Both the position numbers and the translations under genes were made by a program. A stretch of DNA of 64,000 bases from Heterodontus francisci (Eukaryota): positions 121,589,191 through 121,653,190 of the forward strand of contig NC_090374.1 of the NCBI RefSeq assembly GCF_036365525.1, in the 5' to 3' direction. The notes below the pieces were generated by a model. The model did not search any database. It saw only the letters and a program-made list of their open reading frames with translations, and was not told the origin of the DNA. Shown here one piece after another: positions 491 to 59,900 of this stretch; position 1 is the first letter of the stretch; every line of letters starts with the position of its first letter.

Positions 491-496
491 TTCTGA

Positions 497-2190
497 TAGA
501 TAGAGCTAAGCGATCCCAGAAGCAATGGATCAGATCAAAGCTCTGCAGTCCTGCCACATCCAGTCATGAATGGTGGTGGACAATTAAACAACTAACAGGG
601 GGAGGAGGCTCCACAAATATTCCCACCCTCAACAATGGAGGAGCCCAGCAATTCAGTGCAAAAGACAAGGCTGAAACATTTGCAACCATCTTCAGCCAGA
701 AGTGCCAAGTGGATGATCCATCTTGGCCTCCTCTTGCATCACAGATGCCAGTCTTCAGCCAATTCAGTTCACTCTCGTTGATATCAAGAAATGGCTGAAG
801 GCACCGGATGCAGCAAAGGCTATGGGCCCTGACAATATACTGGCTGTAGGACTGAAGACTTGTGCTCCAGAACTGGCTATGCCCGTATCCAAGCTGTTCC
901 ATAACAGCTACAACACTGGCATCTATCTGACAATGTGGAAAATTGCCCAGATATGTCCTGTCCGCAAAAAGCAGGATAAATTCAATTTGACCAATTACTC
1001 AATCATTAGCTAAGTGATGAAAGATGTAATCGACAGTGCTATCAAGCAGCCCTTACACAACAATAACCTGCTCACCGATGCTCAGTTTGGGTTCCACCAG
1101 GGCCACTTGACTCCAGACCTCATTACAGCTTTGGTCCAAACATGGACAAACAGCTGAATTCAAGAGGAGAGGTGAGAGCGACTCCCTTTGCCATCAAGGC
1201 AGCATTTGACCAAGTGTAGCATCAAGGAGCCCTAGCAAAATTGAAGTCAATGGGAAAAGGGGAAAACTCTCCACTGGTTACAGTTATAACTAGCACAAAG
1301 GAAGATGGTTGTGGTTATTGGAGGCCAATCATCTCAGTCCCAGGACATCACTTCATCATAAGGTTAGAAATGGGGATGTTCATTGATGTTTGTACAATGT
1401 TCAGCACCATTCGCGACTCCTCAGATACTGAAGCAGTCTGTGCCCGCATGCAGCAAGACTTGAACAATGTTCAGGCTTGGGCTGATAAGTGGCAAGTAAC
1501 ACTCGTGCACACAAGTATCAGGCAATGACTATCTCCAACAAGTAAGAATCTAACCATTTCCTCTTGACATTCTGGAGGTCACCATTGCCATGTAAATACT
1601 GTGGCTACAAGGGCAGGTCAGGGCTGGGAATTCTGTATTGAGTAACTTACCACCTGGCTCCCCAAAGCCTGTCCACTATCTACAAGGCACAAGTCAGAAG
1701 TGTGATGGAATACGCTCCACTTGCCTGGATGGGTGCAGCTCCAACAACACTCAAGAAGCTTGACACCATCCAGGACAAAGCAGCCCACTTGATCTGCACC
1801 CCATTCACCACTTTAAACATTCACTCCCTCCACCACTGGCGCATAGTGGTAGCAGTGTGTACCATCTGCAAGATGCACTACCATAACTTGTCAAGCCTCC
1901 TTCGACAGCACCTTCCAAACCCGCGATCTCTACCACCTAGGACAAGGGCAGCAGATGTATGGGAACACCACCATCTGCAAGTTCCCCTCCCAGCCACACA
2001 CCATTCTGACTTGGAACTATATCGCCTTTCCTCCACTGTTGGGTCAAAATCCTGGAACTCGCTTCCTACCCCAAATGGACTGCAGAGGTTCAAGAAGCCA
2101 GCTCAAGCCACCACCTTCTCAAGGACAATTAGGGATGGGCAATAAATGCTAGCCTAGCCAGCAATGCCCACATGCCGTGAAAGAATAAAA
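497..2190 (+). mobile_element. LINE-A copy (CR1-group APE-RT LINE), 5'-truncated with internal deletions
   Basis: ORF pieces KAMGPDNIL..KTCAPELA and MMEYAPLAWMGAAPTTLKKLDTIQDKAA; family tail ..caattagggatgggcaataaatgct..gcccacat..gaataaaa. Confidence 0.9.
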
Positions 2191-2305
2191 ACACACAATT
2201 AGCTGTATAACTTCAAATGTTGAATAAATACAAGTGGGGAACACACCCAAATTGTTCCTTCCGTTCACTGGCCCATCACATACTCTTGTATTTCACAGTT
2301 CTCGG

Positions 2306-4441: not shown

Positions 4442-4600
4442 ATGAAGATAGAAGACACAGGACCAGCTTGCAGAAGCCTGGGGTGTTTTTTTAAAAAAAA
4501 ATCAAAGCAGTACTCAAGGAATGCTTATAGCACTGGAACACTACTGCTATTTACATTTATGATTTTTGGGTTTTGTTTGACAATAACTTCCTTGTTCTAA
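4442..4600 (+). other. Candidate 52-codon uORF in the AOPEP 5'UTR
   Basis: ATG at 4442 (MKIEDTGPAC..TITSLF) and TAA at 4598-4600, two nt before the main ATG; depends on the 4415 acceptor being used. Confidence 0.4.
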
Positions 4601-4602
4601 CT

Positions 4603-6646: not shown

Positions 6647-9600
6647 GGGGGAGGCGGTGGAATAGTGTTAATGTCACTAGGCTAGTAACCCAGAGCCCTG
6701 GGCTAATGCTCTGGCACATGGACTTGAATCCCACCATGGCAAATGTTGGAGTTTGAATTCAATTAATAAATCTGGAATTAAAAAGTTAGTCTAGTGGGCA
6801 TGAAACCATTGTCGATTGTTGTAAAAACCCATCTGGTTCAGTAATGTCCTTTAGGGAAGGAAATCTGCCATCCTTACCTGGTCTGGTCTACATGTGACTC
6901 CAGACCCACAGGAATGTGGTTGACTCTTAAATGCCCGCTGAAATGGCCTAGTAAGCCACTCAGTTGTATCAAACCGTTACAAAGTCAAAGAGAAGGAATG
7001 AAACTGGACAGACCACCTGGCATCGACCTTAGCAAACTCAGCCCTGTTGACCCTGCAAAGTCCTCCTTACTAATATCTGGGGGCTTGAGCCAAAATTGGG
7101 AGAGCTGCCCTGCAGACTAGTCAAGCCACAGCCTGACATATCATACTCACGTAATCATACCTTGCAGACAATATCTCAGACACCATCATCACCATCCCTG
7201 GGTATGTCCTGTCCCATTGGCAGGACAGACCCACCAAAGGTAGCGGCACTGTGGTATACAATTGGGGGGATGTTACACTGAGAGTCCTCAATATTGACTC
7301 CGGACCCCATGAAGTCTCATGGCATCAGGTCAAACATGGGCCAGAAAACCTCCTGGTGATTACCACCTATTGTCCCCCCTCAGCTGATGAATCAGTGCTT
7401 CTCCATGTTGAACACCAATTGGAAGAAACACTGAAGGTAGCAAGGGAACAAAATGTACTCTGGGTGGGGGGAACTTCAATGTCCATCACCAAGCGTTGCT
7501 CGGTAGCACCATTACTGACCGAGCTGGCTGAGTCAGGCTGCTAGACTGGATCTGCGGCAGGTGATGAAGGAATCAACAAGAGGGAAATACCCACTTGACC
7601 TCGTCCTCACCAATTTGTTTTTCCAAAAATATACTTTATTCATAAGAATTTGCAAAAAATACCTAACAGAACAGTTCAAATTTCACATTTTGGAACATGG
7701 GGTGCCTCGCAACTCTTGCCATTCAATTTTATATGCAATGTATATTTGCATTATACAGCAAAAACATTTTTGGCGCATACAGCCCGAGGGGTTTTACACT
7801 GGTTCCAGCCCCTTGGTTCACTATGGCGGGAGATCTAGCAACTCAAAACTGGGCATCCATGAGGCACTGTGGGCCATCAGCAACTGCAGAGTTGTATTCA
7901 ACCACAGTCTGTAACCTCATGGGTGGTATATCCCCCACTCTACCATTACCATCAAGCCAGGGGACCAACCCTTGTTCAATAAAGAGTGTAGGAGGGCATG
8001 CCATGAGCAGCACTATGTTTACCTAAAAATGATGTCTCAGCCTGGTGAAGCTACAACACAGGACTACTTGCATGCCAAACAGCAGAAGCAACATGCAATA
8101 GACAGGGCTAAGCAATCCCACAATCAATGGATCAGATCGAAGCTCTGCAGTCCTGCCACATTCAGTCGTGAATGGTGGTGGACAGTTAAACAATTGACAG
8201 GAGGAGGTGGCTCCACAAACATTCCCATCCTCTATGATGGGGGAACCCAGCATATCAGTGTGAAAGACAAGGCTGAAGCATTTGTATCTATCTTCATCCA
8301 GAAGTGTTAAGCGGATTATCCATCTCGGCCTCCTCCTGAGTTCCCCAGCATCACAGATGCCAGTCTTCAGCCAATGTGATTCAAGAAAAGGCACTGGATA
8401 CTGCAAAAGCTATGGGTCCTGACAACATTCCGTCAATAGTACTGAAGACTTGTGCTCCAGAACTAGCTGTGCCCCTAGCAATGCTGCACCAGTACAGCTA
8501 TAACATTGGCATCTACCTGGCAATCTGGAAATTTTCCCAGGTATGTTCTGTGCACAAAAAGCAGGACAAATCCAACCCAGCCAATTACTGCCCTCTCAGA
8601 CTACTCATGATCATCAGCAAAGTGATGGAAGGAGTCGTTGACAGTGCTATCAAGTGGCACATGTTCAGCAATAACCTGCTCACTGATGCTCAGTTTGGGT
8701 TCCGTCAGGGCCACTCAGATCCTGACCTCATTACAGCCTTGGTCCAAACATGGACAAAAGAGCTGGACTCCAGAGGTGAGGTGAAAGTGATTGCCTTGAC
8801 ATTGAGGCAGCATTTGACCGAGTATGGCATCAAGGAGCCCTAGCAAAATTGGAGTCAATGGGAATCGGGGGAAAACTCTCTGCTGGTTGGAGTCATACCT
8901 AACACAAAAGAAGGTAGTTGTGGTTGTTGTAGGTCAATCAATCATCTCAGTGCCAGGATATCACTGCAGGAGTTCCTCAGGGTAGTGTCCTAGGCCCAAC
9001 TGTCTTCAGCTGCTTTATCAAATACTTTCTCTCCATCATAAGGTCAGAAGTTGGGATGTTCGCTGATAGTGCAACGTTCAGTACTGTTCACAACTGCTCA
9101 GGTACTGAAGCAGTCCATGTCCATATGCAGCAAGATCTGGACAACATTCAAGCTTGGGCTGATAATTGGCAAGTAACATTGGTGCCACACAAGTGTCAGG
9201 CAATGACTATCTCCAACATGAGAGAATCTCACCATCTCCCCCTTGATGTTCAATGGCATTCCCATCACTAAAACCCCCATGATTAGCATCCTGGGTGTCA
9301 CCATTGACCAGAAACTGAACTGGACCAGCCACATAAATGCTGTGGCCATACGAGCATGTCAGAGGCTGGGAATTCTGTGGTGAGTATCTCACTTCCTGTC
9401 TCCCCAATGCCTGTCCACCATCCACAAGGCACAAGTCAGGAGTGTGATGGAATACTCTCCACTTGCCTGGATGAGTGCAGCTCCAGCAACACTCAAGAAG
9501 CTCGACACCATCCAGGACAAAGCAGCCCTCTTGATTGGCACACCATCTACCACCCTCAACATTCACTCTGTTCACCACAGATGCACAGTGGCAGCAGTGT

Positions 9601-9957
9601 GTACCATCTACAAGATGCACTGCAGCAACTCACCAAGGCTCCTTCGACAGCACCTTCCAAACCTGCGACGTCTATCACCTAGAAGGACAAGGGCAGCAGA
9701 TGCATGGGAACACCACCACCTACAAGTTCCCCTCCAAGTCACATGTCATCCTGACTGCGACATATGTTGCTGTTCCTCCACTGCTGCTGGGTCAAGATTC
9801 TTGAACTCCCTTCCTAACAGCACTGTTGGTGTATCTACCCCACGTGGACTGCAGCGGTTCAAGAAGGCAGCTCATCTCCACCACCTCAGGGGCAATTAGG
9901 GATGGGAAATAAAGGCTGGCCTAGTCAACGACTCCCACATCCCCCGAACAAAAAAAA
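6647..9957 (+). mobile_element. Near full-length LINE-A with tRNA/SINE head, frameshifted APE + RT and A-rich tail
   Basis: Head with box A-like tggaatagtgt (~6658) and box B-like gacttgaatcc (6721); APE fragments (TNIWGL, TYCPPSADE) and RT fragments (KAMGPDNIP, QFGFRQGHS, PQGSVLGP); family tail. Confidence 0.92.
7615..7830 (-). mobile_element. 3' end of an unrelated retroelement replacing part of LINE-A
   Basis: AT-rich block absent from the other LINE-A copies; minus strand ends ..gaataaagtatatttttggaaaaa (polyA signal plus A tail). Confidence 0.55.
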
Positions 9958-20733: not shown

Positions 20734-23212
20734 GGGTGGCAAGGGCACAAAATGTACTCTGGGTGGGGGACTTCAATGTCCATCACCAAGAGAGGCTCAG
20801 GCACCACTACTGACCCAGCTGGCCAAGTCCTAAAGGACATAGCTGCTAGACTGGGTCTGTGGCAGGTGGTGGGGGAACCAACAAGGGGGAAAGACATACT
20901 TGACCTCGTCCTCGCCAATCTGCCTGCCGCAGATGCTTCTGTCCATGACAGTATTGGTAGGAGAGACCACTGCGCAGTCCTTATGGAGACGAAGTCCCGC
21001 CTTTAGATTGAGGATACCGTCCATCGTGTTGTGTGGCACTATCACCGTACTAAATGGGATAGATTTTGAACAGATCTAGCAAAGCAAAACTGGGCATCTA
21101 TGAGGCGCTGTGGGCCATCAGCAGCAGCAGAATTGTACTCTACCACAATCTGTAACCTTATGGCCTGGCATATCCCCCACTCTACCATTACCATCAAGCC
21201 AGGAGACCAACCCTGGTTCAATGAAGAGTGCAGGAGGGCATGTCAGGAGCAGCACCAGGCATAGCTCAAAATGAGGTGTGAACCTGGTGAAGCTACAACC
21301 CAGGACTACTTGCATGCCAAACTGCGTAAGCAGCATGCGATAGACAGAGCTAAGCGATCCCATAACCAACGGATCAGATTGAAGCTCTGCATTCATGCCA
21401 CATCCAGCCGTGAATGGTGGTGGACAATTAAACAACTAACTGGAGGAGGTGGCTCCACAAATATCCCCATCCTCAATGATGGGGAAGACCAGCACATCAG
21501 TGCGAAAGATAAGGCTGAAGCATTTGCAACAATCTTCAGCCAGAAGTGCCAAGTTGATGATCCATCTTGGCCTCCTCCTGAAGTCCCCAGCATCACAGAT
21601 GTCAGCCAATTCGATTCACTCCGCGTGATATCAAGAAACGACTGAAGGCACTGGAAACTGCAAAAGCTATGGGCCCTGACAATATTCCGGCAATAGTACT
21701 GAAGACCTGTGCTCCAGAACTTGCCGCGCCCCCAGCCAAGCTGTTCCAGTACAGCTACAACACTGGCATCTACCCTGCAATGTGGAAAATTTCCCAGGTA
21801 TGTCCTGTACACACAAAAGCAGGACAAGTCCAACTCGGCCAATTACCGCCCCATCAGCCTACTCTCAACCATCAGTAAAGTGATGGAAGGTGTCATCATC
21901 AGTGCTAACAAGCGGCACTTGCTTAGCAATAACCTGCTCAGTGACGCTCAGTTTGGGTTCCTCCAGGGCCACTCAACTCCTGACCTCATTACAGCCTTGG
22001 TTCAAACATGGACAAAAGAGCTGAACTCAAGAGGTGAGGTGAGAGTGACTGCCCTTGACATCAAGGTAGCATTTGACCGAGTATGGCATCAAGGAGCCCT
22101 AGCAAAACTGAGGTCAATGGGAATCGGGGGAAAACCCTCCGCTGGCTGGAGTCATACCTAGCGCAAAGGAAGATGGTTGTGGTTGTTGGAGGTCAATCAT
22201 CTGAGCTCCAGGACATCACTGCAGGAGTTCCTCAGGGTAGTGTCCTGGGCCCAACCATCTTCAGCTGCTTCATCAATGACCTTCCTTCAATCATAAGGTC
22301 AGAAGTGGGGATGTTTGCTGATGATTGCACAATGTTCAGCACCATTCGTGACTCCTCAGATACTGAAACAGTCCATGTAGAAATGCAGCAAGACCTGGAC
22401 AATATCCAGGCTTGGGCTGATAGGTGGCAAGTAACATTCATGCCACACAAGTGGCAGGCAATGACCATCTCCAACAAGAGAGAATCTAACCATCTCCCCT
22501 TGACATTCAATGGCATTACCATCGCTGAATCCCCCACTATCAACATCCTAGGGGCTACCATTGACCAGAAACTGAACTGGAGTAGCCATATAAATACCGT
22601 GGCTACAAGAGCAAGTCAGAGACTAGGAATCCTGAGGCGAGTAACTCACCTCCTGACTCCTCAAAGCCTGTCCACCATCTATAATGCACGGGTCAGGAGT
22701 GTGATGGAATACTCTCCACTTGCCTGGATGGGTGCAGCTCCAACAACACTCAAGAAGCTCGACACCATCCAGGACAAAGCAGCCTGCTTGATTGGCACCC
22801 CATCTACAAACATTCACTCCCTCCACCACCGACGCACAGTGGCAGCAGTGTGTACCATCTACAAGATGCACTGCAGCAATGCACCAAGGCTCCTCAGACA
22901 GCACCTTCCAAACCCGCAACCTCTACCAACTAGAAGGACAAGGGCAGCAAATACATGGGAATACCACCACCTGCAAGTTCCCCTCCAAGTCACACACCAT
23001 TCTGACTTGGAACTATATCGCCATTCCTTCACTGTCGCTCGGTCAAAATCCTGGAACTCCCTTCCTAACAGCACTGCGGGTGTACCTACCCCAAATGGAC
23101 TGCAGCAGTTCAAGAAGGCAGCTCACCACCACCTTCTCGAGGGCAATTAGGGATGGGCAATAAATGCTGGCCTGGCCAGTGATGCCTACGTCCCATGAAT
23201 GAATAAAAAAAA
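20734..23212 (+). mobile_element. LINE-A copy, 5'-truncated within APE, young (355-aa RT ORF 22083-23150)
   Basis: VPQGSVLGP..FINDL..MFADD RT motifs; family tail; TSD atatccat / atattcat. Confidence 0.93.
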
Positions 23213-24169
23213 ATATTCATATAGTAGCTTTTCTGTGGAACCAGATTAGTCTTTGCTGCACTGCTTTCACCAAGTTTCAAGGGATTATTTTGTTGTGTGT
23301 TAATCACGGTGCCATTTCTGGCATGACAAATGTTGATAGAGAAATTGGAATTTGCTATCCTTGACACTTTGGTAGGTGAGGAGGACAGCAGTTTGCAGTA
23401 GAGGGGACTGTTACCATGGAGCTCTGTGGCAGGAGTTACTCCAAGGGTGTTGGCAGTTTGTGGCCTATCATCACCAAGTACTGATCAAATACATCTAGGT
23501 TACAGTGGAGGAAGGGGTGATTCAGGTCAAGGATGTGTTGCTCAGTGAAGGTAATGCGCTGCTGACTGCCATTCAGATCATTGATTCTTTGGAGGTTCCC
23601 TGATTTTGGTGAGTATGGCAAACTTGCCTCCAATGACGCAGAAACTGGAGAGTATTGTAGTCAAGTCCATTGTCAGTTTTATCTATGTGGAGCCAATTTT
23701 CGTGAAGGCACAGAGCAAATCTTGGAGAAGCATCAATGACTGGTGAACTGTTAGTGATCAAAAGGGACTGGTGAGAGGTGGGGAAGGGAGAGACAGAGAG
23801 ATAAAGAACCACTCACTCAAGTTACAGCAACATCTTGGCTCGACCTTGGTGGGGTCCGCTAATATGTATGGGCCACAAAATTGGACAGGGCCTGAAAACT
23901 GATGCTGGGATCGTGATGTGGATTAGTCCACGCCCATTGCTTCCAGTGCAGGCGGCACACAAACTTTGTGCTGCCTGCTAATTTCAATGATTATAGCACG
24001 CAGCCTGTGCTAGACAAGCTGTTGAGTATGACAATTAGTGCAAAAATGGTGAGAGGCTAGAATGAGTTAAAGCTAGCCTGCAGTACTTAAAAGCAGCCTG
24101 CATCTCTTAAAGGGAACGTACATTGTGACTGGAGCAGGAGCTGGAAATCATTGTAAAAGTGATTTTGAC

Positions 24170-25134: not shown

Positions 25135-26365
25135 TTTTGTTCTTCATGGGATGTGGGCATCACTGGCAATGCCAGCATTCATTGCCCATCTCTAATTGGC
25201 CTTGAGAAGGTGGTGAGCCGCCTTGAACTGCTGTAGTGCATGTGATGTAGGTAAACCCACAATGCTGCTCGTGAGGGAGTTGCAGGATTTTCAGCACGAT
25301 TCATGACTCCTCAAATACTGAAGTAGTCCGTGTAGAAATGCAGCAAGACCTGGACAATATCCAGGCTTGGGCTGATAAGTGACCAGTAACATTTGCGCCA
25401 CATAAGTGCCAGGCAATGACCATCTCCAACAAGAGAGAATATAACCATCTCCCCTTGACATTCAATGGCATTACCATCGCTGAATCCCCCACTATCAACA
25501 TCCTAGGGGCTACCATTGACCAGAAACTGAACTGGAGTAGCCATATAAATACCGTGGCTACAAGAGCAGGTCAGAGCTAGGAATCCTGAGGCGAGTAACT
25601 CACCTCCTGACTCCCCAAAGCCTGTTCACCATCTACAAGGCACAAGTCAGGAGTGTGATGGAATACTCTCCACTTGCCTGGATGGGTGCAGCTTCAACAA
25701 CACTCAAGAAGCTCGACACCATCCAGGACAAAGCAGCCCGCTTGATTGGCACCCCATCCACAAACATTCACTCCCTCCACCACCAACGCACAATGGCAGC
25801 AGTGTGTACCATCTACAAGATGCACTGCAGCAACGCACCAAGACTCCTTAGACAGCACCTTCCAAACCTGCAACCTCTACCACCTCGAAGGACAAGAGCA
25901 GCAGATGCATGGGAACATCACCACCAAGTTCCCGTCCAAGTCACACACCATCCTGACTTGGAACTATATTGCCATTCCTTCACTGTCGCTGGGTCAAAAT
26001 CCTGGAACTCCCTTCCGAACAGCACTGTGGGTGTACCTACCTCACATGGACTGCAGCGGTTCAAGAAGGCAGCTCACCACCACCTTCTCGAGGGCAATTA
26101 GGAAGGATGGGCAATAAATGCTGGCATAGCCAGTGACACCCACAACCCATGAATGAATTAAAAAAAATTTTTTTTGACCGTGTCAGTGAAAGAATGGCGA
26201 TGTATTTCCACAGGCAGGATGGTGTGTGACTTGGAGGGGAACTTGCAGATGGTGGTGTTCCCATGCGTCCCCTGCCCTTGTTCTTCTAGGCGGTAGAGGT
26301 CGCGGGTTTGGAAGATGCTGTTGAAGGGGGCTTGGCGAGTTGCTGCAGTGCATTTTGTAAATGGT
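25135..26365. mobile_element. LINE-A (+) copy 25291-26168 inserted in a LINE-A (-) 3' fragment (25135-25290 plus 26170-26365)
   Basis: The flanks rejoin as gggagttgcaggatttt|gacc..cagtgaaagaatgg, which is the minus-strand family sequence. Confidence 0.8.
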
Positions 26366-35204: not shown

Positions 35205-36120
35205 AATCATAGAGAGTTTATGGCATAGAAAGAGGCCACATGGCCCATCGTTTCTGCGCCTGCCAGGAAAAAAAAAGCCACCCAGTCTAATCCCAGTTTT
35301 CAGCATTTGGTCTGCAGCCCTGCAGATTATGGCACTTCAGGTGCACATCCGGATACCTTTTAAATGAGATGAGGGTTTCTGCCTTTACCACCTTTTCAGG
35401 CAGTAAGTTCCAGACCGCCACCATTCACTGGGTGAAAAAATGTTTCCTCATTTCCCCTCTAATCCTTCTACCAATCACTTCTAATCCATGCCCCCGAGTC
35501 ACTGTCCTCTCTGCTAAGGTAAATAGGCTCTTCCCATCCATTCTAACCAGGCCTCTTACAATTTTGTATATTTCAATCAAATCTCCCCCCAGCCTTTTAT
35601 TTTCCAAGAAGAACAAACCCAGCCTATCCAATCTTTCCTCAGAGCTGCAATTTTCCAATCCTGGCAACATCCTCATAAATCTTCTCTCTAGTGCAATTAC
35701 ATCCTTTCTGTAATGAGGTGACCAGAACTGTACTCAAGTTGTGGCCTAACTAATTTATAAAGTTCCAGCATAACCTCCCTACTCTTATATTCTAAAACGT
35801 AGCTAATAAAGGAAAGGATTCCATATGCTTTCTTAACTGCTTATCGACCTGTCCTGCTACCTTCAGGGATCTGTGGACACACACTCCAAAGTCCCTCAGT
35901 TCCTCTGCACCTCTCCGTATTCTCCCATTTATTGTGTATTCCTTTGCCTTGTTTGACCTCCCCAAATGCATCACCTCACACTTCTCTGGGTTAAATTCCA
36001 TTTGTCACATTTCTGCCCACCTGAGCAGTCCATTGATACCTTCCTGCAATCTACAGTTATTCTTGCTATCAACCACATGGCCAACTTTTGTGTTGTCTGC
36101 AAACTTCTTGATTATTCCCT
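35205..36120 (-). mobile_element. CR1 LINE 3' fragment
   Basis: MEFNPEKCEVMHLG, GDLIEIYKI..TRGH. Confidence 0.85.
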
Positions 36121-36439: not shown

Positions 36440-39400
36440 ATTCGAGTCAAAGAGTCATGTACAGCAATCCAATCAGGCCCATGCCTTGGCTGTATCCCCT
36501 TAGCCCTGCACGTTTATTCCCCTCAAGTGCCCATCCAATTTCATTTTGAAATCATTCTTCATCTCCTCTTCCACCACCCTCAGTGGCAGCGAGTTCCAGG
36601 TCATTACCACTTGCTGTGTTTTAAATAAGAAATTCTTCTCACATCCCCCTGCATTTCTTGCCAAAACCTTACATCTGTGTCTCCTAGTCCTTGTACTATC
36701 AGCGAATGAAACAGCTTTTCTTTGTCTACTTTATCTAAACCTGCCATAATCTTGTACATCTTTGTCAAATGTCCCCTTAATCTCCTTTTCTCCAAGTAGA
36801 ACAATTCCAGCTTCTCCAACCTAACCTTGCAGCTAAAATCCCTCGTCCCTGGAACCATTCTGGTAAATCTCCTCTGCACCCTCTCCAGGACCCTCATATC
36901 CTTCCTTGGGTGATCAGAGCTGGATGCAATACTCTAGTTGTAGCCTAACCAGAGCTTTATAAAGGTTCAGCATAACTTCCCTGCTTTTGTACCCAATACC
37001 TCTATTTATGAAACCCAAGATTCCATATGCTTTGCTAACTGCTCTCTCAATATCTCCTGTCACCTTCAAAGACCAATGCGCATGCACCCCCAGGGTCCCT
37101 CCGTTCCTTTGTACGTTTTAGAACTGTCATTAAGTCTAAATTGCCTCTCCCTATCCCTTCTGCCAAAATGTATCACCTCACACCTCGGTGTATTAGATTC
37201 CATCTGCCACTTGTCTGCCCATTCTGCTCGCCTATTTATGTCCTTTTGCAGTCGATTGGCAGCATCCTCACTGTTTCCCACACCTCCAAGTTTGGTATCA
37301 ACTGCAAATTTTGAAATTTTACTCTGTATTCCAATATCCAGATCATTTATATATATCAAAAAGGCAGTGGTTCTAGCACTGACCCTTGGGGAATACCACT
37401 GTCTATCATCCTCCAGTCTTAAAAACAACCATTTACGACAACTCGCTGTTTTCTGCCCTTAAACCATTTTTTAAAATCCAAGTTGACACTCGCCCTCCTA
37501 TTTCATGAGGCTCAATTCTGTTAACTAGCCTTTTATGTGGTACCATGTCAAATGCTTTCTTAAGCTCTATACGGACCACAACCATTGTATTCCCTTCATC
37601 AACCTTCTCTATTACTTCATCAAAAAATTCATTTAGATTAGTCAAGCGTGATCTGCCTTTTACAAATCTGTGTTGGCTCTTAATTAACTCACATCTCTCC
37701 AAATGCCTGTTGTCCACCACCCCCCCCAGGATAATTGTTTCGAAAACCTTATCCACCACTGATGTTGAACTGACCAGCCTGTAGTTACTAGGAATGTCCT
37801 TACATTTCTTTCTTAAATAAGTGTGTCACATTTGTCACTCTCCAATCCTCTGGCACCTCCCCCATATCTAGGGAAGATTGGAAGATTATGGCAAGCCCTT
37901 CTGCGATCTCCACTCCCACTTCCTTTAGCAACCTGGAATGAAAGCCCTCTGGACTGGATGACTTAGTCACTCTAAGCATAGCCAACCTTTCCAGGTACAT
38001 CCTGTCTATCATTTTTCACCCCATCCATTATCTCCACCATTTCCGCTTCTACTGATTATTTTGTCAGCATCTGCTTCCTTAGCAAACACCAATATACAGT
38101 ACTCAATAAGTATTCTAGCCTTGCCTTGCACCTCTAAGAATATATCACCACTGTTGTCCCGAATAGGCCACTGCCTGCCTCTTGCACCAGCAGGTAAATA
38201 GTAAGCGGGTTGTAAGATTTTTGGGTTCCCTTTTGTGTTAACTGCCATTCTGTTCTCTCTTTGCCAGTCTTATTTTCTTCTTCACTTCCCTCTTTTTGTA
38301 TTGGTCTTGTTCTCGCTTGAAGGATTCACTTGACATGCATCGTACACCCTCTTTTTGTGATTCTTCATATTCTCTATCTCCCTCATCATCCAAGAAGTCC
38401 TGGCTTTGGTTCCTCGATCTTTCAACCTACTTGTAATGTACCTGGCCTATATTTGCAACATCTCTTCCTTAAAGATCACCCACTGTTCCGTTACAGTTTT
38501 TCCCGTCAGTCTTTGGTTCCATTTTACCCTGGCTGGATCCCTTCTCATCCCTTTGAAGATGGTCCTCTTCCTATTATTTTGAATTGTTCCTTGCTCTTCT
38601 CTATTACTAATCTGAACCTTTAAGATATGATGATCACTCTTACCCAAGTGTCCCCCACAGACACTTGGTCCACTTGGCCTTCCTCATTTCCCAGCACCAG
38701 ATCCAGGAGTGCCTCCCTCCTAGTTGGACTAAGAACATACTGGGTCAAGGAGGTCGTCCTGATCACATTTCTGAAATTCCCCCCCTCTCCTCACCCTTTA
38801 CTCTAACATTATCCCAATCTATATTTGGGTTCTTAAAGTCCTTCGGTATCACCACTCTATAGTTCTTGCACACCTCTGAGATTTCCCTGCAGAAATGAAC
38901 CTCTATATCTCTTTCATGATTTGGAGGCCTATAGAATGCCCCAGTATTGTGATCATATTCTTTCTGCTTCTCAACTCTGACCAAATGGATTCTGTCCTTG
39001 ACCCCTCTCGGACAGCCTCTTTTTCCAACACTACAATGTCTGAATGGTGCTGTCTCCTCAGCTCCCTTTTTTCCTTCTCTATATTTTCTGAACACTTTGT
39101 ATCCTTGAAAATTAAGTACTCCGTCCTCACCATTTTTAAGCCATGTTTACATTCTTGCCATTACATCATATTCCTACATGGTTATTTGTGCTTGTAGTTC
39201 ATAACCTTATCCACCACGCTTTGTGTCTTTACATATATGCATTCTAAACCTGTCCTTGTATTCCTTCTTAGTCTGCTATCTAATATGGTACAACTTCCTT
39301 CTCTACTACTATCCAACACTCATTCCTTTATGCACCTTATCACAGAATCCCAGAATTGTTACAGTGTAGAAGGAGGCTATTCGGCCCATCGTGTTTGCAC

Positions 39401-40440
39401 CGGCCCTCTGAAAGAGCAATTCACTCAGTTCCATTCCCCCACCTTCTCCCTGTAACCCTGCACATTCTTCCTTTTCATATAGCTATCCAATTCCCTTTTG
39501 AATGCCTCAATTCCTCTTTTCTCCTTCTGTATGCTGGTGCCCATCCCTCAACCACACTCGTGAACCTCCCCACAAGGACATTGGTCCCAGTCCTGTTGAG
39601 GTGCAACCCATCCCTTTTGAATAGGTGCCTCCTGCTCCAGACATGGTCCCAGTGCCCCAAGAATCTGAAGTCCTCCTCTTTGCACTATGCCTCAATCCTT
39701 GTATTGATCCTCCCTAAGTTGACGATTTCTACTCTCGCTAGCGTGTGGCACTGGGAGTAATCCAGAGATTAATACCTTTGAGGTCCTACTTTCTAACTTC
39801 CTCCCTAGCTCCTGAAAGTCTGACTGTAGGACCTCAAAACCTGCCCTCTCCGTCATTGTTACTCACATGCCACAACTTCTGGCTCACTCCCTTCCGCCTG
39901 CAGAATAACTTGTATACCGTGATGTCCTTTAGCCTGGCACCAGGGAGGTAACACGCCATGCGGGACTCATGATGACGGTTACAGGAACACCTGTCTGTCC
40001 CCCTATCGAATCACCTTTCAAGACTGCATTTCTACTCTTTGCTGTTCCCGCATGTGCTGTCCTTTGTCTATTGGTGTCATTGTCTGCACTGCTTTCCTTC
40101 AAGGTGTCAGCACTCCCAGCAGTATCCAATGTTGAGTTTGAAAGTGGCATACACCCTATGGACTCCTGTACTTCCTGCCTCTTTCTATGTTTCTGGTTAT
40201 CCACCCATCTGCCCTGAACTCCCTCTGGCTGTGGGGTGACCACCTCATGGAATGTATGAACCAAGAAACTCTCATCCTCCCAGATGCTCTGCAGTGACTC
40301 CAGCTGTCTCTCCAGCTTGTAAATCCTGAGCTTGAGCTCATGCAGCTGAAGACCCTTCCTACACACCTGGTCCCCAAGACTCGTGAAGTATCCTGAAATT
40401 CCCACATGGTGCAGGAATGGTGCGCAACAGGTCTCAGCTG
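36440..40440 (-). mobile_element. Near full-length degenerate CR1 LINE (ORF1 zinc finger/leucine zipper + SGNH esterase; ORF2 APE-RT)
   Basis: ORF1 pieces MWE..CRKGLQLHELKLRIYKLERQL, KGDSI and RDGLHLN; ORF2 pieces YRPPN, GKSDH and YINDLD..SKFA. Confidence 0.85.
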
Positions 40441-45065: not shown

Positions 45066-48000
45066 TTTTTTTTTTATTCACTCATGGGATGTGGGCGTCG
45101 CTGGCCAGGCCAGCATTTATTGCCCATCCCTAATTGCCCTTGAGAAGGTGGTGGTGAGCTGCCTTCTTGAACCGCTGCAGTCCACGTGGGGTAGGTACAC
45201 CCACCAGTGCTGTTAGGAAGGGAGTTCCAGGGTTTTGACCCAGCAACAGTGAAGGAATGGCGATATAGTTCCAAGTCAGGATGGTGTGTGACTTGGAGGG
45301 GATCTTGCAGGTGGTGGTGTTCCCATGCATTTGCTGCCCTTGTCCTTCTAGTTGGTAGAGGTCGCGGGTTTGGAAGGTGCTGTCTGAGGAGCCTCGGTGC
45401 GTTGCTGCAGTGCATCTTGTAGATGGTACACACTGCTGCCACTGTGCGTCGGTGGTGGAGGGAGTGAATGTTTGTGGATGGGGTGTCAATCAAGCAGGCT
45501 GCTTTGTCCTGGATGGTGTTGAGCTTCTTGAGTGTTGTTGAAGCTGCACCCATCCAGGCAAGTGCAGAGTATTCCATTACATTCCTGACTTGTGCCTTGC
45601 AGATGGTGGACAGGCTTTGGGGAGTCAGGTGGTGAGTTACTCGCCTCAGGATTCCTAGCCTCTGACCTGCTCTTGTAGCCACAGTATTTATATGGCGACT
45701 CCAGTTCAGTTTCTGGTCAATGGTAGCCCCTAGGATGTTGATAGTGGGGGATTCAGCGATGGTAATGTCATTGAATGTCAAGGGGAGATGGTTAGATTCT
45801 CTCTTTTTGGAGATGGTCATTGTCTCGCACTTGTGTGGTGCGAATGTTACTTGCCACTTATCAGCTCAAGCCTGGATGTTGTCCAGGTCTTGCTGCATTT
45901 CTACACTGACTGCTTCAGTATCTGAGGAGTCACGAATGGTGCTGAGCATTGTGCAATCATCAGCGAACATCCCCACTTCTGACCTTATGATTGAAGGAAG
46001 GTCATTGCTGAAGCAGCTGAAGATGATTGGGCCTAGGACACTACCCTGAGGAACTGCTGCAGTGATGTCCTGCAGCTGAGATGATTGACCTCCAACAACC
46101 ACAACCATCTTCCTTTGCGCTAGGTATGACTCCAACCAGCGGAGGGTTTTCCCCCTGATTCCCATTGACTTCAGTTATGCTAGGGGTCCTTGATGCTGCC
46201 TTGATGTCAAGGGCAGTGACTCACACCCCTTGAATTCAGCTCTTTTGTCCATGTTTGAACCAAGGCTGTAATGAGGTCAGGAGTTGAGTGGCCCTGGCGG
46301 AACCCAAACTGAAGGTCACTGAGCAGGTTATTGCTCAGCAAGTGCCGCTTGATGGCACTGTTGATGACACCTTCCATCACTTTACTGATGATTGAGAGCA
46401 GGCCAATGGGGCGGTAATTGGCCTGGTTGGACTTGTCCTGCTTTTTGTGTATGTGACATACCTGGGCAATTCTCCACATTGCAGGGTTGATGCCACTGTT
46501 ATAGCTGTACTGGAACAGCTTGGCTGAGGTGCGGCAAGTTCTGGAGCACAGGTCTTCAGTACTATTGCCGGAATATTGTCAGGGCCCATAGCCTTTGCAG
46601 TATTCAGTGCCTTCAGTCCTTTCTTAATATCACGTGGAGTGAATCGAATTGGCTGAAGTCTGGCATCTGTGATGCTGGAGACTTCAGGAGGAGGCCGAGA
46701 TGGATCATCAACTCGGCACTTCTGGTTGAAGATTGTTGCAAATGCTTCTGCCTTATCTTTCGCACTGATGTGCTGGGTTCCCCCATCATTGAGGATGGGG
46801 ATATTTGTGGAGCCACCTCCTCCAGTTAGTTGTTTAATTGTCCACCATCATTCACAGCTGGATGTGGCAGGACTGCAGATCTTAGATCTGATCCGTTGGT
46901 TATGGGATCGCTTAGCTCTGTCTATTGCATGCTGCTTACGCAGTTTGGCATGCATATAGTCCTATGTTGTAGCTTCACCAGGTTGACGACTCATTTTGAG
47001 GTATGCCTGGTGCTGCTCCTGGCATGCCCTCCTGCACTCTTCATTGAACCAGGGTTGATCTCCTGGCTTGATGGTAATGGTAGAGTGGGGGATATGCCAG
47101 GCCATGAGGTTACAGATTGTGGTTGAGTATAATTCTGCTGCTGCTGATGGCCCACAGCACCTCATGGATGCCCAGTTTTGCATTGCTAGATCTGTTCGGA
47201 ATCTATCCCATTTAGCACGGTGGTAGTGCCGCGCAACACAATGGAGGGTATCCTCAATGCGAAGACGGGACTTCGCCTCCACAAGGACTGTGCGGTGGTC
47301 ACTCCTACCAATACTGTCATGGACAGATGCATCTGCGGCAGGCAGATTGGTGAGGACGAGGTCAAGTATGTTTTCCCTCTTGTTTGTTCCCTCTCCACCT
47401 GCCACAGACCCAGTCTAGCAGCTATGTCCTTTCGGACTCGGCCAGCTCGGTCAGTAGTGGAGCTACCAAGCCACTCTTGGTGATGAACATTGAAGTCCCC
47501 CGCTAAGAGTACATTCTGTGCCCTTGCCATCCTCAGTGCTTCCTGCAAGTGCTGTTCAACATGGAGGAGTACTGACTCATCAGCTGAGGGAGGGCAGTAG
47601 GTGGTAATCAGCAGGAGGTTTCCTTGTCCATGTTTGACCTGATGCTATGAGACTTCATGAGGTCCAGAGTCGATCTTGAGGACTCCCAGGGCAACTCCCT
47701 TCCGACTTTATACCACTGTACCGCCACCTCTGTTGGATCTGTCCTGCCAGTGGGACAGGACATACCCGAGGATGGTGGTAGTAGTGTCTGGGACATTATC
47801 TGTAAGGTATGATTCCGTGAGTATGACTGTCGGGCTGTTACTTGACTAGTCTGTGGGACAGCTCTCCCAACTTTGGCGCAAGCCCCCAGATGTTAGTAAG
47901 GAGGACTTTGCAGGGTCAAAAGGGCTGGGTTTGCGTTTGTCGTTTCCGGTGCCTAGGTTGATGCCGGGTGGTCTGTCCAGTTTGATTCTTTTTTATTGAC

Positions 48001-48320
48001 TTTGTAGCGGTTAGGTACAACTGAGTGGCTTGCTAGGCCATTTCAGAGGGCATGTAAGAATCAACCACATTGCTGTGGGTCTGGAGTCACATGTAATCCA
48101 GACCAGGTAAGGACAGCAGATTTCCTTCCCTGAAGAACATTACTGAACCAGATGGGTTTTTACAACAATTGACAATGGTTTCATGGCCATCGTTAGACTA
48201 GCTTTTTAATTCCAGATTTATTCATTGAATTCAAATTCCACTTTCTGCTGTGGTGGGATTTGAACCCATGTCCCCAGAGCAGTACCCTGGGTCTCTGGGT
48301 TACACTGGTGCAATGATGCA
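45066..48320 (-). mobile_element. Near full-length LINE-A with tRNA/SINE head
   Basis: Box B GGTTCAAATCC (complement of 48256-48266); APE (GDFNVHH, IGRSDH) and RT (PQGSVLGP, MFADD); tail and polyA at 45066-45075. Confidence 0.93.
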
Positions 48321-51505: not shown

Positions 51506-52035
51506 AATATCATCTGTTTTCCCAATTTTTACTTTGCTTTCTGATCATTTAAATCTCATTTATAGCTCCTGCATTATAATTCCTGGTTTAGACTCTGCCT
51601 GTCTCTGAGGATTCTCCAATCTGATTGGTTGAAGTGCCTCGCTGTATCTTGACCAACTCATGGATGCCGCGCTGGATCAGACACTGGATTAGAGCAAGTC
51701 TCCACTCAAAAGCCATTTACAACTTTGTGGGCGGTTGTCAGAGAGGTGAACAGCAAGCATTGTTTCTTTGCCGTTGACTGCAAAACCCAGGCTAATATTT
51801 TCATGTCAGTTCAGAAATTTGGCATAAATAATTGCCTTTTACAGGAGGCCTGTCACCTTTTGTAGAAGATTTTGAATTTCTTGACTGATTTTATTCGGTG
51901 AATACACAAGGATAGGTTATGCCAGAAGGTTCCTTTCATCAAACCCGATTTAGATGTTGCAGTTTTTCTTTGTTTATTAATTCCTTGTTTCCTTGAATTA
52001 GCTATAGCAAGTAACTCGCCTCCTGTCTCTCCTAT

Positions 52036-52540
52036 GCCTGTCCACCATCTATAAAGCACAAGTCAGGAGTGTGATGGAATATTCTCCGTTTGCCTGGATG
52101 GGTGCAGCTCCATTAACACTCAAGAAGTTCAACACCATCCAGGACAAAGCAGCCAGCTTGATTGGCACCCCATCCACCACCTTCAACATTCACTGCCTTC
52201 GCCACCAATGCACAGTGGCAGCAGTATGTACCATCTACAAGATGCACTGCAGCAACTCACCATGCCTTCTTCGACATCACCTTCCAAACCCGCAACCCCT
52301 TCCACCTGGAAGGACGAGGGCAGCAGATGCATGGGAATGCCACCGCCTGCAAGTTCCCCTCCAAGCCACACACCGTCCTGTGTGGTTACTTGGAACTATA
52401 TCGCCGTTCCTTTACTGTCCCTGGATCAAAATCCTGGAACTCCCTTCCTAACAGCGCTGTGGTTTTCTACACCCCTAAGGACTGCAGCAGTTCAAGAGGG
52501 CAGCTCACCACCACCTTCTCAAGGGCAATTAGGGATGGGC
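52036..52540 (+). mobile_element. LINE-A 3' fragment
   Basis: MMEYSPFAWMGAAPLTLKKFNTIQDKAA; ends at ..caattagggatgggc. Confidence 0.88.
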
Positions 52541-52620
52541 ATGGAAGATGGCAGGATCCCCAAGGACACATTGTACAGCGAGCTTGTCACTGGTATCAGA
52601 CCCACCGGCCGTCCGTGTCC
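52541..52620 (+). mobile_element. RTE-clade LINE fragment
   Basis: MEDGRIPKDTLYSELVTGIRPTGRP matches the typical RTE C-terminal motif (RLPK.LLY.EL..G.R..GRP). Confidence 0.65.
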
Positions 52621-52752: not shown

Positions 52753-53169
52753 GGGGAGATGGTGACGTCGTGGTAATGTCGCTGAACTAGTATTCCAAAG
52801 GTCCAGGCTAATGCCCAGGGACACGAGTTCAAATCCGACCATGGCAGCTGGTGGAATTTAAATTCAATTAATTAATAAAAAAAAATCTGGAATTGAAAGC
52901 TAGTTTCAGTGATGGTGCCATGAAAGTATCATCGATTGTTGTTTTAAAAGAAAACCATATGGGTTCACTAACGTCCTTTAGGGAAGGAAATCTGCCATCC
53001 TCACCTGGTCTGGCCTACATGTGACTCTAGACCCACAGCAATGTGATTGACTCTTAACTGCCCTCTGAAATGGCCTAGGAAGACACTCAGTTGTCAAGTG
53101 CAATTAGGGATGGGCCACAAATGCTGGCCTTGCCAGTGATGCCCACATCTCATGAGAGAATTAAAAAAA
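52753..53169 (+). mobile_element. tRNA-derived SINE sharing both its 5' head and 3' tail with LINE-A
   Basis: Box A-like tgacgtcgtgg and box B gttcaaatcc; body colinear with 6647-6967, then jumps to the LINE-A tail caa..caattagggatggg..gcccacatc..A-run. Confidence 0.88.
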
Positions 53170-53862
53170 TTTCCAATGTGCTAAACCTCAAAGGGTTAGC
53201 AGAGAAATTAGCAATTGGGTTAATTAAAATACACCAAATTGTTTGTTTGATAAGGTTATCCAGGGTGTACATGGAGAAGATAATTTTTCATTATTGATTC
53301 TTGGTTGTGAAAACAGTTGAGAGAATTTGGCAGAACTGTACCAGTATATTAAGACTGGAATACTCAATTGGTAGGGTGTTTGACCCATACTTAAGAGTTA
53401 GGGAGTTGAATGATGGTAAGGACCAATCATCCTTTGATGTTCTAAGGTTGGTGAATGGCATACCACTAATGGGAATGAATGGAGTCAGAAAAGTTGTATA
53501 CAAGACAGAACACATAAGCATGGAATATTACCAAATGGCACTCCTAGTTCATGGGTGAAACAGAGATGGCACTGTGCCTAACAATATGTCAAAATGTTAC
53601 AGTAAGCTGGGGAATTGTAGCCTCAGCCTAAATATACACCATTACTGGCATTCCTGGCCCTTTATATTTAATGTAAACTTATTATTGGTGTTTAGAAGAA
53701 AAAATTGAATTAATTTGTGACTCAAAGGAAGCTGGCTGTTTATAACAGTATTTGCTAATGCAATGTATTTTTCCCCAAATTTTATTGAGAAGGTAAATAT
53801 GCAAATTGGAATTTTGTAGAAAATGTCCTTTATTTAAAAAAATTATATTTCTTTGATTCCAG

Positions 53863-55290: not shown

Positions 55291-56090
55291 ATTAAATCTA
55301 ATTCCAAGCCAATCATAGAAATTTACAGCATGGAAGGAGGCCATTTGGCTCATCGTGTCCACACCGGTTGATAAGGAGCCATCCAGCCTAATCCCACTTT
55401 CCGACTCTTGGTCTGTAGACGTATAGGCTCTGGCATTTCAAGTGCATATCCAAGTACCTTTTCAATGTTATGAGGGTTTCTGTCTCTACCACCTTTTCAG
55501 GCAGTGAGTTCCAGACCCCCTACCTCCTCTGGGTGAAAAAATTTCCCCTCGAGTCCCCTCTAAGCCTCTTACCTCTTGCCCTAAATCTATGCCCCCTTGT
55601 TATGGACCCCTCAACCCAGGAAAATAAGGTCTTCCTATCCACTCTATCTAGACCCCTCATAATTTTATACACTTCAATTAGTTTTCCCCTCAGCCTCCAC
55701 TGTTCCAAAGAACACAACCGTACCCTATCCAATCTTTCCTCATAACTAATATTCTCCAGTCCAGGCAACATCCTCGTAAATCTTCTCTGTCCCCTCGCCA
55801 GAGGAATCACATCTTTCCTATAGTGCGGTGACCAGAACTGCATGTAGTACTCTAGCTGTGGTCTAACTAGTTTTTATACAGTTCTGGCATAATCTCCCTG
55901 ACCTTATATTCTGTGCCCCAGCTAATAAAGGCAAGTATCCTGTGTGCCTTCTTGACCATCTTATCTACTTGTCCAACCACCTTCAGGGATCTGTGAACGT
56001 GCACTCCAAGGTGTCTCTGTTCCTCTACACTTCTCAGTGCCTTACCATTTATTGTGTGTTCCCTTGCTTTGTTAGCCTTCGCAAATACAC

Positions 56091-56434: not shown

Positions 56435-56487
56435 TCCGGATTGAACTCTATTTTCCACTGTTCCGTTCACCTGACTAGTCCACTGAT

Positions 56488-56935
56488 CTTTTTTTATTCC
56501 TTCAAGGGATATGGGCGTCGCTGGCTAAGCCAGCATTTATTGCCCAGCCCTAATTCCCCTTGAAAAAGTGGTGGTGAGCTGCCTCTTGAACCGCTGCAGT
56601 CCACGTCACGTAGGTACACCAATAGTGCTATTAGGAAGGGAGTTCCAGGATTTTGACTCGGTGACAGTGAAGGAACGGCGATATAGTTCCAAGTCAGGAC
56701 CGTGTGTGACTTGGAGGGGAACTTGTGTGTTCCCATGCATCTACTGCCCTTGTCCTTCTAGGCGGAAGAGGTTTGGCAGGTGCTGTCGAAGGAGCCTTGG
56801 CGAGTTGCTGCAGTGCATCTTGTAGATGGTACACACTGCTGCCACTGTGTGTCGGTGGTGGAGGGAGCGTATATTGAAAGTGGTGGATGGGGTGCCAATC
56901 AAGCGGGCTGCTTTGTCCTGGATGGTGTCAAGCTT
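56488..56935 (-). mobile_element. LINE-A 3' fragment
   Basis: KKLDTIQDKAARLIGTPST..; family tail. Confidence 0.88.
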
Positions 56936-59900
56936 CTTTCTGCAGTCTGTAGCTTTTTTCTTCATTATTAATCACATGGCCAATTTTTGTATTGCCTGCT
57001 GGACTTCTTAATCATACCCCTATATTCGAGTCCACGTCATCGATATAAGCCACTAAAAACAAGGGGCCTAGTACTAAGACCTGCGGAACCTCAGTGGAAA
57101 CAGCTTTCCAGTCACACAAAACACCAGTGACAATTACCCTTTGCTTCCTGCCTCTGAGCCAATTTTGGATCCAACTTGTCACTTTGCCTTGGTTCCAGTG
57201 GGCTTTTACTTTCGTCACCAATCTGCCATGTGGGACTTGCCCAAAAGCCTTGCTAAAATCCATATAGACTACATCAAATACACTACCCTCATCGACCCTC
57301 CTTGTTACCTCCTCAAAATATGAATCATGTTAGTCAGACATGACCTTCCCTTAACAAATCCGTGCTGACTTTTTGATTAATCTGTGTCTTTCTCAATGAA
57401 GATTTTTCCAGTCCCTCAGAATTTTTTCCAATAATTTGTCCACCACTGAGGGTAGGCTGACTGGCCTGTAACTACTTAGTCTATCCCTTTCTCCCTTTTT
57501 AAATAATGATGAATACTTAATGAATACTTTGTATCTGTTTTCACAAAAGAGAGGGGAGGTGCAGGTCCTCCATTCCTCTGGCACCACCCCTGTAGACAGG
57601 TAGGATTGAAAAATGATGGTCAGAGTCTGCTATTTCTTCTCTCGCTTTGCTTAGCCTAGGATATATTTCACCTGGGCCTTGGGATTTGTCCACTTTCAAA
57701 GATGTTAAATCCCTTAATACTCTCTGTTAATTTTATCTAATATTTCATACTCCTCCTCCCTGATTGTAATGCCTGTATCTCCCCTCTCTTTTGTGAAAAC
57801 AGATACAAAGTATTCATTAAGAACCATATCGATGTCCATTGCCTCCATGCTCAAGTTACCCTTATGGTCCTGAATAGGCCCTACTCTTTCTTTAGTTTCC
57901 TGTTGCTCTTCATGTATTTATAAAAAATCTTCGGGTTTTCCTTGATTGTACTTGTCAATATTGTTTCTTTGCTTTCCAAATGTCCTTTTTAATTTTACTC
58001 CTACACTTTTTAATACTCCTTTAGGTTTTTTTTGCAGTATTGAGCCCTCTTTATGTCATAAGCTTTCCTTTTTCTCTTCATCCTCTCCTTTAACATCCCT
58101 TGACATCCAGTGGGTTTTGGATTTGTTCGTCTTACCTTTTTTTAAGCGAACATAGTTGTTCTGAACCCTCACTATCTTTTCCTTGAATGCCCCTGGCACT
58201 GATTTACCTTCAAGTAGCTGTTTCCAGCCCACTTCAGCTAAATTGCATCTCAGCTTAGTAAAATTAGCTTTTCTCCAATTGAGAACTTTTTTCCTGGTCT
58301 ATCTTTGTCCTTTTCCATAACTACCCTAAATCTGACTGAATTATACTCACTTCTACCAAAGTGCTCCCCAACTGATACCCCTTGCACTTGCCCAGCTTCC
58401 TTCCCTAAAACTAAATCCAGAACCACCTCTTATTGAGCTTGCTATGTACTGGCTTAAAAAAAAGTTCTCCTGAATGCATTTTTAAGAAATCTGCTCCCTG
58501 TATGCCTTTCATACTAAGTTCATTCCAGTTAATATTAGGGTAGTTGAAATCCCCCACAATTACTGCCCTATTGTTTTGCACTTCTCAGAGATTTGCCTAC
58601 ATATTTGCTCTTCTAATTCCCTCTGACTGGGGGTCTATAAGTATACTCCCAGTAGTGTGATTTCCCCCTTTGTTCTTCATTTCAACCCATATGGCCTCAT
58701 TTGATGATCCTTCTGCCATATCATCCCTCCTTACATCTATAATTGTTTCTTTAATCAATATTGCGACCCCCTTCTCCTTTTTATCCCCCTCTCTATCTCA
58801 TCTGAAAATTCTGTAACCAGGAATGTTGGGCTACCATTTCTGCCCTTTCAGCCATGTCTCAGTAATATCCACATGTCAATCTGTGCTCTCTACTCAACTG
58901 CCTTACCCGCTAGAATTCTTGCATTGAAGTATATGCCATTTAGCAAGGTCAAACTCCCTTGTTGTCTATTTTTATAGCCTTTGTTTCCTCTGCCTTCCAA
59001 ACGCACTTACTAATTTGCTGCCTTCCATTTCCAATTTCTCTGCTTTCTGAATCTACTCTCATATTCCCATCTCCCTATTAAGCTAGTTTAAACCCTCCCC
59101 AACAACACCAGCGAGGATATTTATACTGGTCCGGCTGAGGTGCAATCCGTTCGGCTTGTACAGGTCAAATCTCCCCCAGAAGCAGTCCCAATGCCTCAGG
59201 AAACTAAAGCCCTCTTTCCTGCACCATCTCTCTGGCCACGTATTCATCAGCTCTATCTTCCTATTTCTGTACTCACTGGCGTGTGGCACTGGGAGAAATC
59301 CAGAGATTACTACCTTTTGAGGTCCTGCTTTTCAATTCTCTCCTAGATCACTCCTCCAACTCTGATCAGTGAATTCCCGCCACCCCACTTCATTCCACTA
59401 TCAGATGCCATGACCCCATCCTCTGAACTCCTTCCCCAAACTTGCCACCTTGCATTCTATGTTCCCATCTTTAAACACCTTCTCAAAACTCATCTCTTTG
59501 ACAATGCCTTTGGTAATCTTTCCTAACTCCTATACTATTGTGCTTGTTTCTCTTTGTGAAATGCCTTGAAATGTTTTTCCATGTTAAAGGCACAAGTCTG
59601 TTGCTGTTTACTTCAATTCTTTAGAGGTTTATTCCTCTTTTCCTTTGAGTAAATAAACCTGCACTTGGTATCTCATTAGATGGTTACAACTGACTGCAGA
59701 TTTTATAGGAATTTTGAGAAACTCCGATTTGAATGTAACATGCCCTTTACCACTCAGTGATGAAGCTTATGGGAGGAGTAATACTAAAGAAAGAAGTTGC
59801 CTTATGAAATTGTACTTGAGATGCTCTCACAAGCATATATAAAATTTCAGGCTTTATTTAGGTTATTGCTTACCTATGAGATATTGGTATGACAAACCAA

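Follow-up and report, generated by a model that had tools for sequence, protein, structure and literature searches.

A sense-strand deficit of T runs in a tRNA-headed coding LINE of sharks and its possible origin in RNA polymerase III transcription

Within the window, the 64,000-nt stretch of Heterodontus francisci DNA analysed here, lies a 3.3-kb coding LINE whose family bears a tRNA-type head at its 5′ end, keeps its ORF under purifying selection, and lacks T runs specifically on the sense strand. The T-run deficit is confirmed as real, and selection for RNA polymerase III (Pol III) read-through is probably its best explanation; as evidence on the polymerase, the deficit is indirect and suggests Pol III. 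The full reading reaches further and is placed slightly below even odds, at about 45%: shark and ray Zenon may be an autonomous coding Pol III retrotransposon with a 3.3-kb uncapped RNA, a synonymously recoded ORF, a non-canonical translation start and a Deu body as leader, and the SacSINE1-type SINE may be its ORF-less deletion form. LINEs are held to be products of Pol II and SINEs of Pol III, whose usual output is confined to short non-coding RNAs and whose processivity is considered too low for coding ones. An abundant shark family with an ORF purged of Pol III stops would, if the reading is true, break this division of polymerases between LINEs and SINEs. It would also supply a natural long Pol III mRNA for the study of cap-independent translation, and give a function to the Deu domain, which is conserved in SINEs and long unexplained.

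Layout of the element and its copies

The element is built, from 5′ to 3′, of a tRNA-type head (A box and B box), a body of ~240 nt, an APE-RT ORF and poly(A) (Table 1). Once breaks are corrected, the ORF lies in one frame with the Pfam domains RVT_1 and Exo_endo_phos_2. There is no ORF1, the ~300 nt that separate the 5′ end and the ORF being common to the SINE. All eight inspected copies have A-rich ends, as poly(A)-tailed elements do. At 3.3 kb, and with an ORF under purifying selection, the element falls outside the SINE2 definition (non-coding, 100-700 nt), into which only 52753-53170 fits. Zenon, a very abundant shark family, contributes 20.5% of the window. The body (48017..48255) is provisionally called Deu-like, after PMC5499810.

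Table 1. Zenon-derived features and T runs in the window, numbered from its first letter
Feature	Position	Strand	Remarks
Near-full-length, decayed elasmobranch Zenon LINE (main copy)	45066..48303	-	5′ 400 nt matched by eye to published elasmobranch Zenon consensuses
B box (GGTTCAAATCC) of tRNA-type head	48256..48266	-	from the sequence
SINE-shared Deu-like body	48017..48255	-	contains family T3 at 48235 and 48134
Single APE endonuclease + RT frame	45130..48032	-	~974 codons, broken in the main copy
3′ tail common to SINE	45066..45142	-	ends AATAAA/A10; no internal T-run terminator
Private T4	47918..47921	-	family reads TGTT
Family T3, Phe codon then G	46740..46742	-	in 4/4 covering copies
Family T3, Phe codon then G (QFG)	46306..46308	-	in 4/4 covering copies
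Older head-bearing copy	6649..9957	+	A box ~6658-6668, B box ~6720-6731; broken at 7617-7831
5′-truncated copy	20734..23213	+	93% to main copy; private T4 near 21064
Older 5′-truncated copy	495..2191	+	
5′-truncated copy	25280..26171	+	
3′ fragment	52007..52541	+	
3′ fragment	56486..56938	-	
SINE (head + body + tail without ORF)	52753..53170	+	A box ~52763-52773, B box ~52826-52836

By its 5′ match to published rows, the element is identified as an elasmobranch Zenon LINE of the CR1 group, of which CarCar_Zenon-1 and relatives have been described (PMC13343379). These Zenons likewise combine absence of an ORF1, APE and RT domains, and poly(A) in ~3.29 kb, and their first 400 nt, the part of each row compared, correspond by eye to the 5′ part of the element. 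In an RT tree of 93 regions, which contains no named reference Zenon proteins and leaves out rows aligned under 330 aa, the ORF stands beside lancelet and crustacean proteins (support 82), in agreement with PMC13343379.

The head belongs to the family, because the depth of a contig pile-up, drawn from four studies with one public run each (27,724 to 833,266 contigs per run), continues unbroken across the head-ORF border. The main copy is 5′-truncated by ~35 nt and is missing the A box, which is present in the 6649 copy and in the SINE. A- and B-box motifs are found in the window copies as well as in published Zenon rows. As judged by eye over the first 400 letters, 7/7 elasmobranch Zenon rows (five species, 2886-3314 letters) begin with a tRNA-type head; over the same 400 letters, GGTTCGAATCC or GAGTTCAAATCC occurs in six of the seven and is absent from the other rows. 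ARAGORN at default settings calls no tRNA in the decayed heads and gives noisy calls only, on both strands, when relaxed, which were discarded; there is no Rfam tRNA match in the window or in the two heads.

The SINE joint, from 45142 to 48019, recurs in four of four public runs in the contig pile-up. Judged by its sequence, the SINE is the Zenon LINE minus its ORF; by its layout we take 52753..53170 to be SacSINE1-like. The older head-bearing copy, 6649..9957, is presumably one insertion despite its interruption at 7617-7831 (-), where an unrelated A-tailed 214-nt fragment, which may derive from an L1/Tx1-type element's 3′ end, stands in place of ~150 nt.

Elsewhere in the window, the 52007 fragment adjoins a piece at 52541-52620 (+) that translates as MEDGRIPKD... 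and is presumably an RTE-like C-terminus. A 325-codon frame at 4531-5508 (+) without a Pfam match is probably a host exon, and we take it to resemble aminopeptidase O. Additional 3′ fragments of CR1 type, in which T4 runs are shared, lie at 32245-33000, 35205-36020, 36440-37470 and 55311-56090 (-), and a repeat pair, 72% identical, occupies 39590-39792 and 59129-59331.

Scarcity of T runs on the sense strand

On the sense strand of 45076-48300, which is 20.5% T, runs of at least three T number four, those of A 48, those of C 44 and those of G 36; none of the 64 trimers is more depleted than TTT. The sequence-only reading had placed the four runs correctly (48235-33, 47921-18, which is the T4, 46742-40 and 46308-06) and rightly spoke of dozens of sense-strand A runs. 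Its count of four describes the main copy but not the family, which has five T3, since those at 48134 and ~46196 are also shared, the latter being deleted in the main copy. Both T4 runs that it regarded as post-insertion mutations are indeed private: the only one of the main copy reads TGTT in the 6648 copy at 47921, and that of the 20734 copy reads TTCC in the main copy. At position 47920, 97-99% of the pile-up depth carries another letter in four of four runs. In an alignment of 11 other window fragments, every T4 or longer run is confined to one copy and five T3 are shared; private T runs are frequent in old copies, and the family majority contains no T4 or longer. Of the 195 majority differences 40 are listed; at all 40 the main copy is likewise at odds with the rest of the window copies, and none of the 13 pile-up changes to sense-strand T among these 40 gives a run above 2.

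How many runs should be expected depends on the control. Base composition predicts 22.0 runs of at least three T and dinucleotide shuffles 12.6 (p 0.003); the 20-25 first guessed is too high, a fair figure being 11-14. In a majority ORF of 974 codons, built by script, four such runs (three without the private run) are found against 13.7 under synonymous permutation. That unstratified permutation was replaced, since CpG decay inflates its TA and TT deficits, by one in which codons are permuted within strata according to whether the next base is G or not; 11.1-11.2 runs are then expected against four (P 0.0002-0.0006, O/E 0.36). A third-position resampling model was dropped, as it also distorted A and G runs. 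The check proposed at the outset, shuffling with protein and codons preserved, leaves the deficit standing. The count of runs is low in all three thirds of the ORF (observed/expected 1/2.6, 3/4.6 and 0/4.0), and real, unjoined ORF pieces give 1 vs 4.6 in the main copy (P 0.011) and 1 vs 3.4 in the 20734 copy (P 0.065).

The deficit is graded and confined to T. Under CpG stratification, A, C and G runs are normal and TA occurs 105 times against 102.7 expected; in the majority ORF, TT is observed 81 times against 93.8 and TTCT once against 6.8. Third-position T is used at 85/242 sites where it is isolated, at 28/122 where it makes TT, at 0/33 where it makes TTT, and at 1/4 where it makes T4, the one use being the private case, whereas in 80 controls (the best 80 of 424) the corresponding use is flat at 0.59-0.65. 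Each of the family's three TTT codons is followed by G, which places it in a CpG-mutable context. The low Phe content of the ORF (1.95%, below 97/97 homologues) was not used as evidence, a GC-rich control (L003) being similar (21/953).

Related LINE ORFs behave differently. The controls, the best 80 of 424, are invertebrate and come from eukaryotic contamination in prokaryote bins; 37 further ORFs were obtained from 61 loci after 20 duplicates and 4 loci without an ORF were dropped. The O/E for runs of at least three T averages 1.01 in the 80 best of 424 (minimum 0.78) and again 1.01 in the 37 (minimum 0.75), so that 117/117 related ORFs, T-matched ones included, lie between 0.75 and 1.64 against 0.36 for the shark element. 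The 22 of the 37 with T<=0.25 hold 364 runs where 360 are expected (O/E 1.01). The sequence-only reading had named equal depletion in related LINEs that lack the tRNA head as fatal to its idea; no such depletion is seen in any of the 117. Nor is it seen within the same genome, where CR1 and L2-like pieces (12 vs 12.4, 4 vs 4.4, 6 vs 5.3) and host ORF pieces, short and decayed as they are, sit at expectation. In the neighbouring CR1, described earlier as rich in TTT and TTTT, the T3 count matches expectation (16 vs 13.8), and T4, at only 2 vs 3.7, is not frequent; one CR1 T4 is common to 3/3 covering CR1 copies. Over the first 400 nt, by eye, none of the seven head-bearing elasmobranch Zenon rows has a T4 and each of three headless hagfish and coelacanth rows has a T4 or longer, a weak control in that the stretch is mostly SINE-shared and the coelacanth 5′ end is of low confidence.

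Several observations accompany the control set. Intact animal LINE contigs (L002-L141) occur in many prokaryote bins, one of which (G008) alone gives 153 matches; this is host contamination in the genome collection. One control among the 80 best of 424, L045 (ORF 568-1854), has no T4 against 4.9 expected, and L052 (4827-6908) has 4 against 11.7, both with normal T3; they may be chance cases or additional candidates for Pol III transcription. ARAGORN calls no tRNA in the 47 control loci examined out of 80, many of whose contigs are without a 5′ end, so that not all of them need be headless. A metagenome scan returned one weak locus without an intact ORF, and viral-contig scans nothing useful.

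Could the deficit be a mutational or compositional by-product, of C-over-T codon bias, CpG decay or RT homopolymer slippage, with no selection on transcription at all? Half of the deficit first expected does disappear under codon- and CpG-aware controls (22 to 11), and the nearest GC-rich control, L003, which has a T5 and a T6 in its 3′ UTR, shows a milder trend in the same direction (O/E 0.88). Yet the remaining deficit survives those very controls, A runs, which are equally slippage-prone, are normal, and GC- and T-matched controls stand at 1.01, making this account very improbable. Avoidance of the endonuclease's own target, like RT slippage, was set aside on the normal A runs, and RNase L-type avoidance of UpA and UpU on the normal TA.

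Terminators, transcription and translation

TTTT and TVTTT are the shortest Pol III terminators, and TTT and TCTT cause minor termination only, according to the accessible part of PMC8466645. The family sense strand has no TTTT or TVTTT, as would be expected of a type 2 Pol III transcription unit, with 3.3 expected in the ORF (P 0.016) and 21 present on the antisense strand. T4 taken alone is expected 1.6 times and its absence is not significant (P(0) 0.16). The original logic, that T4 terminates Pol III and T4 is missing, thus agrees with a family free of T4, but at 1.6 expected it has low power. The broader claim of selection for Pol III read-through is not refuted by the controls; its strong signal, however, lies in TTT, TT and TTCT, none of them an established terminator and all short of the threshold known for termination. 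Selection on TTT and TTCT would require an additive effect, in which a small leak at each of ~11 sites would presumably sum over 3.2 kb. Beyond the 3′ end, the first T4 in the flank comes after 13-178 nt in six of eight copies and is not found within 300 nt in the other two.

A mechanism can be proposed along these lines. TFIIIC would bind the internal A and B boxes, and Pol III would copy the whole Zenon unit into the flank, so that a full-length LINE RNA would arise from an internal tRNA-type promoter, presumably by Pol III, and end at the first T run of the flank. Masters that gained an oligo-T stop, or the summed T-rich pauses over 3.2 kb, would yield shortened RNA missing the 3′ tail on which target-primed reverse transcription depends, and hence no copies; synonymous sites would in this way be purged of T runs by what we take to be selection. 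The uncapped RNA would presumably be translated from a non-canonical start. Against selection for Pol III read-through, the accessible part of PMC10886601 has LINEs use Pol II and Pol III processivity limit length.

The reading frame bears on this last step. Subfamily-diagnostic changes number 18 synonymous to 7 nonsynonymous, as opposed to 46 to 127 among private ones (513 codons, P 1.6e-5), and therefore the head-bearing lineage made its own protein. The ORF opens after ATG GCC TAG (48041-48033), its first in-frame Met comes near codon 283, and the leader contains 11 ATGs, a difficulty for the translation step. An in-frame TGA at 47918-47916 is CGA in the published rows (CpG decay). Overlapping the ORF is a short frame, MKLDRPPGID..., of ~47 codons, or 41 in the 6649 copy (48041-47830 (-); 6940-7115 (+)), whose ATG follows an A-rich stretch and is present in the 6649 copy and in six of seven published elasmobranch rows; the APE-RT frame could be joined to it through a frameshift or through re-initiation. 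The closest proteins (P0121-P0132, lancelet-type) often have no Met close to where the endonuclease begins, show a basic stretch at the N terminus and come from 3.2-4 kb contigs, and their elements might bear SINE heads. IRES and non-AUG starts are discussed for non-LTR elements, and Pol III promoters mentioned in passing, in the accessible part of PMC3894237.

Transcription might instead be by Pol II, from the head or by host read-through, with U runs purged for another RNA-level reason such as the avoidance of cryptic 3′ splice sites, of U-rich motifs for decay or immune sensing, or of pausing by Pol II at T tracts. This would accommodate the low TT and TTCT, which fall below any proven Pol III terminator, and a capped RNA would ease translation; LINEs are, moreover, described as Pol II products in the accessible parts of PMC5786205 and PMC10886601. 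The same pressure would nonetheless be expected on other intronless LINEs, and it is found in none of the 117 relatives or the same-genome CR1/L2. UpA, which RNase L avoidance usually affects together with UpU, is normal, and the retention of A and B boxes across five species would be left unexplained. On balance, Pol II transcription is unlikely to account for the deficit.

A division of labour is also conceivable, in which Pol III makes the template for reverse transcription and the protein is translated from capped Pol II transcripts, less common and issuing from the same loci or sister ones. The lack of T runs would then still point to Pol III, whose RNA, however, would be no mRNA. Such an arrangement avoids the translation problem, and this RNA is abundant in its SINE form; that the ORF was under purifying selection along the master lineage would, however, be easier to understand if the copied RNA coded in cis, and we consider the arrangement distinctly improbable.

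Relation to known systems

The family itself is known, and the head is in the published Zenon consensus; head and T-run deficit are unremarked there. The main text of PMC13343379 has no match for tRNA or polymerase III, and its supplement none for tRNA. A whale shark preprint, in its accessible part, names CR1-Zenon and no more, and that of bioRxiv 788562 has no match for polymerase III. The accessible parts of PMC5786205, PMC10886601 and PMC11481361 assign LINEs to Pol II and SINEs to Pol III, and in the literature searched (titles and abstract starts, with most subscription papers and Repbase outside) no Pol III-made autonomous LINE is described.

Among SINEs, the Deu-SINEs SacSINE1 and LmeSINE1, in the accessible part of PMC5499810, have in sharks a tRNA-like head, a Deu body and a LINE-like tail, a layout that 52753-53170 follows with its Deu-like body; they are non-coding, whereas in the present case a coding Zenon supplies these three parts from its two ends. 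The same source ties SacSINE1 to L2-2_CM by tail similarity, and tails of bivalve Deu SINEs are linked to CR1-Zenon in the accessible part of PMC11481361. Bipartite SINEs are likewise formed from the two ends of a partner LINE, as presented in the accessible part of PMC5786205; that model makes the tRNA head a later addition and the LINE a Pol II element, while here the coding LINE is itself head-bearing.

Two kinds of retroelement come close to the proposed reading from other sides. R2, like Zenon as read here, is an autonomous single-ORF non-LTR element whose RNA is not made by Pol II and is translated without a cap; unlike Zenon, it is co-transcribed with rDNA by Pol I, uses a ribozyme and has an RLE endonuclease. 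The TRIMp3 elements Cassandra, Helenus and Ajax are likewise retroelements with a small-RNA-derived Pol III promoter, and differ from Zenon in being short, non-coding and of LTR type, as given in the accessible part of PMC10886601.
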